DNA of 64,000 bases, from NCBI GenBank assembly GCA_964016885.1, contig OZ024752.1, positions 26,722,001 through 26,786,000 of the forward strand, in the 5' to 3' direction. Position 1 is the first letter of the stretch, and each line of letters begins with the position of its first letter. The notes beneath the pieces were generated by a model that worked only from the letters and a program-made list of their open reading frames with translations, ran no database searches and had not been told where the DNA came from. This stretch comes from Eledone cirrhosa. Its lineage: Eukaryota. Position numbers and translations under genes: made by a program. This document shows positions 993-61,201 of the stretch, one piece after another.

Positions 993-1870
993 TAAGTATG
1001 CATGTATACGTACATACATATATGTATACAGACGTACAGTAGCATGCACATATATATATATATATATATATACATATATACATACATATGCATACAGGTA
1101 CACATACATATATGCACGTATCAGTTTAGCGGCGCTAACGTCGCTTTGTTCGTTTGTAAACAAACTGAACAGCCTGAATTTATGCCATACGGTGTTAAGG
1201 CAACCACGTCACCTTTTTGTTCAACACTGACACAGGAACGATGTACTAGTTTCAAGCTTGTTAGCTATCATCAGCACCGTTTACCCATCTGCCAGATAGT
1301 TGAACGTTCGAAAGTATATACTTTCCTTATGAAAATTAACGGCTGAGCAGCCTAATTTGCATATTGAGTGAGTTAAATCGGTCAGGCATACCGAAAACGA
1401 TAAATTGAAACAAAATGAAAACGAAATTTCATTTCTCACTCTTAGTATGGCACTTACTTAAATGTAAGTATGCATGTATACGTACATACATATATGTATA
1501 CAGACGTACAGATGGGTAAACGGTGCTGATGATAGCTAACAAGCTTGAAACTAGTACATCGTTCCTGTGTCAGTGTTGAACAAAAAGGTGACGTGGTTGC
1601 CTTAACACCGTATGGCATAAATTCAGGCTGTTCAGTTTGTTTACAAACGAACAAAGCGACGTTAGCGCCGCTAAACTGATACGTGCATATATGTATGTGT
1701 ACCTGTATGCATATGTATGTATATATGTATATATATATATATATATATATATATGTGCATGCTACTGTACGTCTGTATACATATATGTATGTACGTATAC
1801 ATGCATACTTACATTTAAGTAAGTGCCATAATAAGAGTGAGAAATGAAATTTCGTTTTCATTTTGTTTCA
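993..1870. mobile_element. Family A hammerhead retroelement: antisense ~1.1 unit plus sense partial unit, joined at CAG microhomology (1509-1511)
   Basis: Same unit as 42727-49180 (6-bp indel); hammerhead motifs at 1237-1281 (-) and 1519-1563 (+); flanked by TA/CA repeats. Confidence 0.85.
1519..1563 (+). ncRNA. Type I hammerhead ribozyme (family A)
   Basis: aacggtg-CTGATGA-t agct aaca agct t-GAAAC-TA-GTA-catcgtt: stem I, core, stem II and palindromic stem III (ACTAGT). Confidence 0.82.
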
Positions 1871-4561
1871 CATATATATATATATACACATATATATATA
1901 TACACACATATATATATATACACACATATATACATATATACACATATATACATATATACACATACACATATATATATATACACATATATACAAATATATA
2001 CACATATACATATACACATATATATATATATATATATACATATATATATACACATATATACACATATATACATATATATACACACACATATATATACACT
2101 TATATACACATATATACATATATATACACACATATATACACACATATATACATATATATATATACACATATATACATATATATATATATACACACATATA
2201 TATACACATATATACATACATATATATATACACACATATATATACACATATATACATACATATATATACACATATATACATATACACATATATATATATA
2301 TATATACAAATATATATACACACATAGATATATATATACATATATATATACACACATATATATATATACACATATATATATATACACATATATATATATA
2401 TACACATATATATATATACACATATACACACATATATATATATATATACACACATATATATATACATACACATATATATATATATATATATACACACATA
2501 TATATATATACATACACATATATACACACATATACATATATATATATACACATATATATATATACACATATACATATATACATATATATACACACACATA
2601 TATATATATATACACATATACATATATACATATATACATATATATACACACACATACATATATATATATATATATATACACATATATACATATATATATA
2701 TATACAACTATATACATATATATATATATACACATATATACATATATACATATATACACATATATACATATATATATGTATACACATATATACACATATA
2801 TACATATATACACATATATACACATATATATATACACATATATTCATATATATACATATATACACATATATACACATATATATATACACATATATACATA
2901 TATATATATACACACATATATACATACATATATATATACACATATATATATATATATATACACATACATATATATATACACATATATACATATATATATA
3001 CACATATATATACACATATATACATATATATATATACACATATATACACATATATATATACACATAATTATATACATATATACACATATATATATACACA
3101 TATATATATACACATATATATATACACATATATACATATATACACATATATATATACACATATATATATATATACATATATACATATATATATATATACA
3201 CATATATATATATATACATATATACACATATATATATATACATATATACAAATATATATATATACATATATACAAATATATATATATACATATATACAAA
3301 TATATATATATACATATATACACATATATATATATACATATATACACATATATATATATATACGTATATTCACATATATATATACATATATACATATATA
3401 TATATACGTATATTCACATATATATATATATACATATATACATATATACACATAAATATATATACATATATACATATATACACATATATATATACACATA
3501 TATACATATATACACATATATATATACACATATATACATATATATATATACACATATATACATATATATATATACACATATATATATACACATATATACA
3601 TATATATATACACATATATCCATATATATATACACATATATATATACATATATACACATATATATATACACACATATATATATATATATACATATATACA
3701 CATATATACATATACACATATATATATATACATATATACACATATATATATATCCATATATACAAATATATATATACATATATACACATATATATATATA
3801 CGTATATTCACATATATATATACATATATACACATATATATATACGTATATACACATATATATATACACACATATACATATATACACATATATATATACA
3901 CATATATACATATATATATATACACATATATACATATATATCTATATATATACACACATATATATACACATATATACATATATATATATACACATATATC
4001 CATATATATATATACACATATATCCATATATATATACACATATATATATATATATACACATATATATATACACATATATATATATATATATACATATATA
4101 TATATACACATATATATATAAACACATATATATATATATATACATATATATATATATACATACATATATATATATAAACATACATATATATACATATGCA
4201 TACATATATATATACATATATATATATATATATATATATATATACATCTATATACATATATATATATATATACATATATATATATACATATATATAAATA
4301 TATACATATATATTTATATACATATATATATATACATATATATATATATACATATATATATATACATATATATATATATACATATATATATATATATATA
4401 CATATACATATATATATATATATATACATATATATATATATACATCTATATATATACATATATATATATATACATATATATATATATATATACATATATA
4501 TATATATACATATATATATATATATATATATATACATATATATATATATATACATATTTAT

Positions 4562-60155: not shown

Positions 60156-60744
60156 CTAAACAGTTACTGTCTGATATGTTCTTCACATAACCAAAAATAT
60201 ATATTTCTATGAAATAAAGGCAATATAGAAAACGATTACATTACGAATATATACATAGTATTTTACATTTTATTTCGTAAAATTTACGATTCTGCTCAAT
60301 GGATTAAAGTAGAGAGAACACGCTAATTGTAAAAAAAAAGAAAGAAAAGAAAACTTGGAACATGCTGGCATAAAATAAAATAAGTGTTATAGTAAGTCAA
60401 TATATATATTCAAAGAATGAATTATTCAGAATGTATCTGATGGGTTTAAGCATGTTGACCTCTGTGAAACTATTGGAGAGAGAGAGAGAGAGAGAGAGAG
60501 AGAGAGAGAGAGAGAGAGAGAGATTTAAACTGTGTAGGATCATTATCACCCAAAACATCATCAAGTATCATCTCCTCTGGTTTAAAACCATCGATCACTA
60601 TCTGGGATTTATAAGTATGTGGGGTAGCACAAACAGGTAATCATTTAACATTATTGTCAACGGCAAATTAACCAGGCATGATATGATAAACTGGAAACTT
60701 TGACTAGAAATATGATCCTCATATATATATATATATATATATAT

Positions 60745-61201
60745 ACAGGCGTACAGTAGTATGTATATATATACATACATGCACACATATAACTCACTCG
60801 ATATGCAAATTAGACTGCTCAGCCGTGAATATGCATAAGGAGGGTATATACTTTCAGACGTTCAATCATCTGGCAGGAAGGTATACGATGCTGACGATAG
60901 CTAATAAGCTTGAAACTAGTACATCGTTCCTGTGTCACTGTTGAACAAAAAGGCCACGGTGGTTGCCTGAACACTGTACGGCGTAATTCGGGCTGTTTGT
61001 TTACAAACAAACCGAACATTATAATAAATGTTCGGTAAACCCATACGTACTTATATATATGTGTGCATGTATGTATATATATACATACTACTGTACGTCT
61101 GTATATATATATATGTATGTACGTATACATACATACTTACATTTAAGTATCAGCCGTGCTAAGACTGAGAAAAGAGATTTCATTTCATTCTTTTCAATTT
61201 A
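60745..61201. mobile_element. Single family A/B-related hammerhead element with short inverted 5' piece
   Basis: Hammerhead 60885-60927 acgatg-CTGACGA-tagct aata agctt-GAAAC-TA-GTA-catcgt; 60745-60790 is the reverse complement of ~61055-61102. Confidence 0.85.

Follow-up and report, generated by a model that had tools for sequence, protein, structure and literature searches.

The locus studied here raises the question of how insertions arise that consist of an antisense part joined to a sense part, with both outer ends facing the same simple repeat. It lies in a stretch of 64,000 nucleotides of Eledone cirrhosa (assembly GCA_964016885.1, contig OZ024752.1, positions 26,722,001 to 26,786,000, forward strand), called the window below, of which about 23% was masked as degenerate (TA)n. 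The preliminary description listed 13 such elements and proposed that both strands of a cut (TA)n site prime reverse transcription at fixed UA-containing sites. To judge from their sequence, the families concerned are non-coding, mostly hammerhead-bearing elements with the head-to-head insertion shape of Penelope-like elements (PLEs). Their structure is probably best read as twin priming at two fixed AU-containing sites of the RNA, followed by joining through microhomology.

Inverted arms with two fixed and unequal outer ends

Self-BLAST recovered an antisense arm joined to a sense arm in all 13 listed elements, with inverted repeats of 40 bp to more than 600 bp, and another six insertions built in this way came to light. 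In every family one arm ends at one site (site 1), whereas the other continues through a tail of 26–137 nt to a second site (site 2). The ends are unequal in 17 of the 18 complete insertions, and several tails exceed 30–40 nt. Site 1 of family I coincides in five of five arms, and its site 2 falls within 2 nt in four of four. The spread of site 2 is 11 nt in family I' and 6 nt in family A, whose two insertions have the left end in common, as described earlier. All 12 insertions of the multi-copy groups (A 2, H 2, I 4, I' 2, E/F 2) combine a site 1 end with a site 2 end. A permutation test based on shuffled ends gave p = 0.045 within families and 0.0015 for the pooled data; as the sites were defined from the very copies tested, this pairing of unlike ends is suggestive, not decisive. 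Of the 17 tabulated insertions, 7 have site 2 at the left end and 10 at the right; both orientations thus occur, as a palindromic target would allow.

The insertions are listed below, with the microhomology at the junction given after "joined at" and the strand of the hammerheads in brackets.

993–1870, family A: antisense arm 993–1511 (site 1) and sense arm 1509–1870 (site 2), about 99% alike, joined at CAG (1509–1511); tail of 58 nt; hammerheads at 1274 (−) and 1526 (+).
16347–16380, family I mini-insertion, newly found: about 25 nt antisense from site 1 and 12 nt sense to site 2, joined at TCA, no inverted repeat; repeated at 16425–16454 and counted once.
17073–17642, family H near-palindrome: left arm to site 2 (137-nt tail), right arm to site 1, joined at TTCA (17429–17432); hammerhead at 17439 (+).
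23183–23332, family I, newly found: site 2 left, site 1 right, joined at GC.
28500–29124, family G: 53-bp antisense arm (site 1) and partial-tandem sense arm to site 2 (118-nt tail), joined at AATT; hammerhead at 28876 (+).
29797–30258, family F, a homologue of E: left end at site 2 (tail of 96 nt), right end at site 1; hammerhead at 30167 (+).
30884–31283, family I', newly found: site 1 left, site 2 right, 37-nt (TA/CA) run at the junction.
31362–33148, family A' (unit length 419 bp): the antisense arm reaches 31849 and is followed by a 3-nt insert, GAC, and by about 3.1 units in sense orientation; the right end has been lost.
34081–35701, family K: site 2 left (75–77-nt tail), site 1 right; hammerhead in both arms; only the right arm contains a short interspersed nuclear element (SINE), which has a 12-nt duplication.
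35847–37339, family E: left end at site 1, right end at site 2 (tail of 92 nt), joined at GGG; hammerheads at 35932 (−) and 37159 (+).
38586–38647, family H mini-insertion of 62 bp, newly found: ends as in 17073–17642 in the opposite orientation, joined at ACA, no inverted repeat.
38706–40796, family C (unit length 468 bp): 1.8 units in antisense and 2.7 in sense orientation, left and right end at one and the same site, joined at GAGA (39534–39537).
41047–42014, family D (319-bp units): left end at site 1, an internal AU run, right end at site 2 (tail of 26 nt), joined at G.
42636–42710, family I mini-insertion, newly found: 23 nt antisense from site 1 and a tail-covering sense arm, joined at GGT, no inverted repeat; the site 2 arm stops about 2 nt short of site 1.
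42726–49181, family A array: 613-bp antisense arm and 12.1 nearly identical 482-bp sense units, joined at AC (43337–43338).
49207–49544, family I near-palindrome: left end at site 2 with a tail of 57 nt, right end at site 1; the covered part contains no hammerhead.
55040–55294, family L: 40-bp inverted repeat of 90% identity, 79-nt extension on the left.
55349–55440, family I' mini-insertion, newly found: site 2 left, site 1 right, no inverted repeat.
60745–61201, family A': sense arm to site 2 and an antisense arm of 47 bp, which stops at a TA run inside the unit, about 30 nt upstream of site 1; hammerhead at 60891 (+).

Two boundaries of the preliminary description were changed. The right side of 31362–33148, said to run into (TA)n, abuts unrelated sequence instead, and family K starts at 34081 and not at 34158, its tail having been missed. 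Pairwise comparison showed homology among A, A' and C (z 14–103), between E and F (z 7.5) and between I and I' (z 17.6). These groupings leave eight sequence lineages, and to call the insertions unrelated was an overstatement.

Type I hammerheads were identified in families A, A', C, D, E, G and H by pattern and stem checks (0–1 hits per shuffled window), in F by pattern and fold and in K by eye and fold; none was found in the covered part of I, I' and L. The Rfam gathering scan of the window gave 0 matches, and so did exact-pattern scans of metagenome and viral contigs. The units of A (482 bp), A' (419 bp), C (468 bp) and D (319 bp) are arranged in tandem, non-coding and equipped with a type I hammerhead, some of the cores being damaged. 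The hammerhead sets the polarity in 11 of the 13 elements listed earlier, and since its strand points outward in all 11, both outer ends are 3'-ward ends of the RNA. The tail-out polarity claimed for the whole list stands for these 11; 49207–49543 and 55040–55295 show no hammerhead, and the polarity of I, I' and L is presumably that of the other families. An assignment to miniature inverted-repeat transposable elements or other DNA transposons was rejected, as the ends are different internal points of the tandem unit and not terminal inverted repeats; matching ends occur in family C only.

Several features of the hammerheads were recorded in addition. Stem II is greatly lengthened in H (114 nt, 17439–17571) and in G (49 nt, 28876–28945), and the hammerhead region of H, with a stem I of 10 bp, folds far better than shuffled sequences (z −4.8). 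In family D (41811; 41224 on the minus strand) a U3–A8 core pair replaces C3–G8. In most hammerhead-bearing insertions, though not in 993 and 17073, the longer arm lies on the plus strand; selection may act against long sense arrays on one of the strands, as it would in transcribed DNA.

Palindromic structures in (TA)n-rich DNA could also come from fold-back chimeric reads or assembly errors, and no junction was seen in independent data, which consisted of short contigs matched to one family C unit. However, the flanks are not mirrored, unequal ends recur between loci, the arms differ at 0–8% of sites, and only one arm of K carries a SINE with its own duplication; arm divergence and the SINE had already been put forward against an artefact in the preliminary description, and both points hold. 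Arm-type inverted repeats were found in none of 24 other stretches of the window tested, including inserts of a long interspersed nuclear element (LINE), of Helitron type and of fragments that we take to be RTE-like, and five of the 24 contain short local palindromes or opposed SINE copies only. The structure is thus tied to one class of elements and not to insertion into (TA)n itself. An artefact is unlikely on these observations, and the probability that we would assign to it is minimal.

Microhomology, arm geometry and the source of the two arms

Where an insertion meets its (TA)n flank, RNA sequence and flank overlap by at least 2 nt at 12 of 12 clean distinct sites and by at least 3 nt at 8 of 12, where about 0.25 and 0.14 are expected by chance. 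This count omits rows shortened by private mismatches (the left ends of A' at 31362 and 60745, the right end of F, both rows of H, and the right ends of I at 23183 and I' at 55351), the right end of A at 993, where the flank starts with CA, and repeats of one site; L was left unscored. ATAT or TATA recurs at the outer ends of G, I, I' and K. The overlap fits priming in which a self-complementary target end pairs with AU dinucleotides. In most families, though not in I and I', one of the two sites appears to be preceded by a U-rich run.

Junctions were scored in 13 of the 19 insertions, with microhomology of 3, 2, 4, 1, 3, 2, 3, 1, 3, 4, 4 and 3 nt and one 3-nt insert, the values at 49410 and 38615 being read by eye. 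The four microhomologies named earlier (CAG, AC, GAGA and TTCA) were recovered, the last taken as such because of the 10-bp hammerhead stem I. The general range of 2–4 nt given for the junctions holds for 10 of the 13, two having 1 nt and one the insert. The mean of 2.5 nt compares with 0.74–0.81 for random antisense–sense joins of the same templates (p ~1e-6). Inner ends fall within about 35 nt of the hammerhead core at the right of 993, on both sides of 17073 and C, and at the left of F and K; most inner ends are not near the core.

The junctions and their microhomology could also be scars of later deletions within long unstable palindromic insertions, in which case they would say nothing about the insertion itself. 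Microhomology-mediated deletions of Penelope copies are reported in the accessible part of PMC3846280; such deletions would yield fixed outer ends with variable centres and could mimic arms that are not nested and joined by microhomology. However, the losses would have to be very one-sided (226 bp against about 1180 bp retained in K), and it would remain unexplained why there are two fixed ends that are unequal, so we regard this history as very unlikely.

The geometry of the arms bears on a second alternative, fold-back self-priming, in which one cDNA or an antisense template folds by microhomology, is copied into a hairpin and is resolved by the endonuclease at a fixed site. Resolution would leave a tail on one side, and later deletions would yield asymmetric copies. 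Self-priming on an antisense template is the published reading of head-to-head copies (PMC3846280, in the part accessible). It requires the site 1 arm to be nested within the site 2 arm, and this is the case in 8 of 17 insertions; 17073, 23183 and 49207 are near-perfect palindromes. The remaining 9 of 17 are not nested, among them four mini-insertions with no inverted repeat and 993–1870, whose arms are still about 99% alike. On the RNA the arms overlap by 39–613 nt in 13 of 17, overlap being absent in the four mini-insertions only.

Alleles specific to single insertions occur in both arms. A 6-nt deletion and substitutions are common to both arms of 993–1870 and absent from both arms of 42726–49181, and a private T-to-C allele is present in both arms of 23183–23332. 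The two arms of these insertions therefore come from one source, which self-priming would also provide. The left arm of family C matches the innermost sense unit and differs from sense units 2–3 at five columns. As these columns hold common family alleles, they show only that this arm was not copied from units 2–3, which is a further point against a fold-back. Altogether, self-priming appears an unlikely origin of the set. The 12 units of the family A array differ by one substitution and by the length of a TA run, a homogeneity that is compatible with a circular or a young homogeneous template.

The third alternative is dual priming, proposed for L1 (PMC2837659, accessible part), in which two separate RNAs, one for each target strand, are copied and the cDNAs are joined by microhomology. 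It explains overlapping arms with no need of displacement synthesis, and it explains the identical site at both ends of family C; the predicted dimeric enzyme of a related system could carry two RNAs. However, it does not predict unlike ends in 12 of 12 insertions, alleles specific to an insertion in both arms, or the arm at 42656, which ends about 2 nt before reaching site 1. Two RNAs per insertion thus seem decidedly unlikely.

Proposed twin priming on one RNA and the points against it

The reading that we prefer, twin priming, would proceed as follows. A (TA)n-targeting PLE is the likely mobiliser. Each nicked (TA)n strand would pair by 2–4 nt with one of two fixed AU-containing sites, both primers presumably sitting on one RNA. 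The downstream cDNA would pass site 1 by displacement or, in a multimer, would use a unit lying upstream. Short microhomology would join the 3' ends of the two cDNAs, so that the junctions would date from the insertion. The earlier proposal of priming by both strands agrees with the fixed UA/AU-containing ends, with microhomology above chance and with a geometry that excludes a fold-back in 9 of 17 insertions; it is retained here as a probable mechanism. We further consider, more tentatively and with rather less than even confidence, that (TA)n-targeting PLEs and their retrozymes normally integrate by twin priming, in which a dimeric reverse transcriptase (RT)–endonuclease would use two AU sites of one RNA, one for each strand.

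It is worth noting that several results weigh against twin priming. The pairing of unlike ends is marginal within families and was tested on the data that supplied the sites, family C has the same site at both ends, and the eight nested insertions, near-perfect palindromes included, are compatible with a fold-back. Candidate target duplications of 12–22 nt occur at some ends, but their frequency, 7 of 19 compared with 74 of 342 cross pairs, is not significant (p = 0.15). According to the accessible text of PMC11167929, the protein of PAc, a Poseidon element of the green anole, starts at RNA sites with no homology to the cut DNA and with no strand preference. No inverted arm is visible in a coding PLE of the window at 4559–7606 (see below) or in four or five other PLE-like pieces, so the inverted shape is not shown to arise always.

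Public sequence data matched to one family C unit are equivocal in this respect. No strand-changing joint was found in four runs, three of them consisting of short contigs and the raw Hi-C data giving 0 reads; since contigs drop rare variants, the absence of such a joint neither supports nor refutes the proposed junctions. The end equivalent to 40329 recurs in public contigs and continues into (AT)n in 12 of the 1051 contigs from run X1, which may or may not be independent of the assembly, and in 1 of 39 of run X4. Run X5 contains a tandem joint, and 4 contigs with a median loose length of 8 give a weak hint that family C has a second end about 73 nt upstream.

Neighbouring elements and relation to known systems

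The window also contains the following elements.

4559–7606, minus strand: broken Hydra-like PLE of about 3 kb in (TA)n, with RT and C-terminal GIY-YIG.
62891–64000: second GIY-YIG PLE piece.
8195–11316: endonuclease–RT LINE, an insert splitting (TA)n.
50323–53870: second LINE.
A piece of a PIF1 helicase (Helitron-like), also an insert.
35443–35645, 19207–19350, 20394–20923, 58081–58179 and 59555–59779: copies of one SINE, which presumably resembles octopus SINEs.

The element at 4559–7606 contains the motifs LRWRAF (R for K), SDKTGN, CNCRNRVDC, AYIGLT, CDLC and CRH, of which RWR, DKT, CxCx5C, CxxC and CxH match the set of the Hydra clade in the accessible text of PMC8557442. The Hydra-like label is based on these motifs, and the 1383 homologues found carry no clade names. 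A degenerate hammerhead-like motif is present near the 3' end, and the element ends about 36 nt past it. Its start lies directly at (TA)n, about 14 nt upstream of the predicted first codon, and its length is close to that of one unit. Pairwise comparison gave no clear sequence link to the non-coding families, so this PLE is a candidate for the type of mobilising element only. Among metagenome loci related to the PLE RT, 119 pattern matches were obtained, none of which was confirmed.

Some observations concern the (TA)n arrays and further inserts. Between positions 1 and 18227 the interruptions of (TA)n are strongly one-sided, with ratios of TACATA to TATGTA of 38:0, 88:1, 34:3, 52:2, 30:3, 38:0 and 42:1; possibly one old array was split by nested insertions, or the mutation process is strand-biased. 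Serial insertion into one TA run is seen at 42398–49544, where family I pieces occur at 42403, 42636 and 49207 and the 6.4-kb family A array sits between two facing site 2 ends of family I. A GC-rich imperfect palindrome of 77 bp adjoins (TA)n at 37357–37433, and a short related piece is present at 11344–11377. Pieces that are partly tandem or bear a hammerhead lie at (TA)n with no visible inverted arm at 24141–24795, 61214–61910, 33149–33675 and 24918–25272; an arm consisting of the tail only would be visible in such pieces solely by comparison with a second copy.

The comparison with published systems is based on the accessible parts of the texts. PMC8557442 describes PLE copies with an inverted 5'-truncated copy and a tail of 30–40 bp, often on one end only, reports (TA)n as the target of Naiad and Hydra, ascribes the tail to endonuclease resolution and names the formation of tandem and inverted structures and tails as an open question. 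Head-to-head copies are the most frequent form in PMC3846280, and minimal hammerheads in PLEs are described in PMC4209133. The insertions of the window resemble those of endonuclease-bearing PLEs in the inverted 5'-truncated head-to-head copy, the partial tandems, the one-sided tail, the hammerhead near the end and the microsatellite target, and they have (TA)n targets and hammerheads in common with Hydra clade PLEs, whose motifs 4559–7606 carries. Unlike published PLE insertions, they are non-coding, have tails of 26–137 nt and include mini-insertions of 34–90 bp with no inverted repeat. The architecture itself is already known for PLEs, and what the window adds is the mechanistic twist; the generality suggested earlier is confined to PLE-type elements and does not extend to all (TA)n insertions.

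Metazoan retrozymes that are not of the long terminal repeat (LTR) type have been proposed as non-autonomous PLE derivatives (PMC7229834; bioRxiv 10.64898/2026.07.22.740005). The window arrays resemble them in their tandem non-coding units of 319–482 bp and in the type I hammerhead with a short palindromic stem III. The accessible text of neither source describes inverted heads or two fixed ends: a word count of the main texts gives 0 occurrences of "inverted" for PMC7229834 and one for the preprint, in a reference title, and 0 occurrences of "tail" for the preprint.

The in vitro work on PAc (PMC11167929) is close to the proposed mechanism in the use of two strands and of two sites bounding a tail. 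Its protein, predicted to be a dimer, cuts and extends both strands at an AT-rich target, and two internal RNA start sites downstream of the hammerhead bound the tail. In contrast, the sites of the window overlap (TA)n by 2–4 nt and are used one per end, and the PAc starts are not linked to inverted insertion. Twin priming and dual priming were defined for L1 (PMC2837659), where two target strands likewise prime and the inverted pieces are joined internally, often with microhomology; unlike in L1 twin priming, both sites in the window are fixed and lie near each other, and overlaps of 40–600 nt between the arms are frequent. Literature searches revealed no model of twin priming for PLEs, although older subscription papers and supplements, which lay outside their scope, may hold one.

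If twin priming is the usual route of integration, the inverted arm and the one-sided tail would be two faces of one reaction that fixes both ends of the insert, and no separate step of top-strand joining would be needed. It predicts one end at each of two fixed sites, pairing of 2–4 nt with (TA)n and tiny inserts with no inverted repeat, all of which can be checked in any assembly of the lineage and in the existing in vitro system. The insertion scars also tie the retrozyme arrays of animals to the PLE machinery, beyond the sequence likeness already published.

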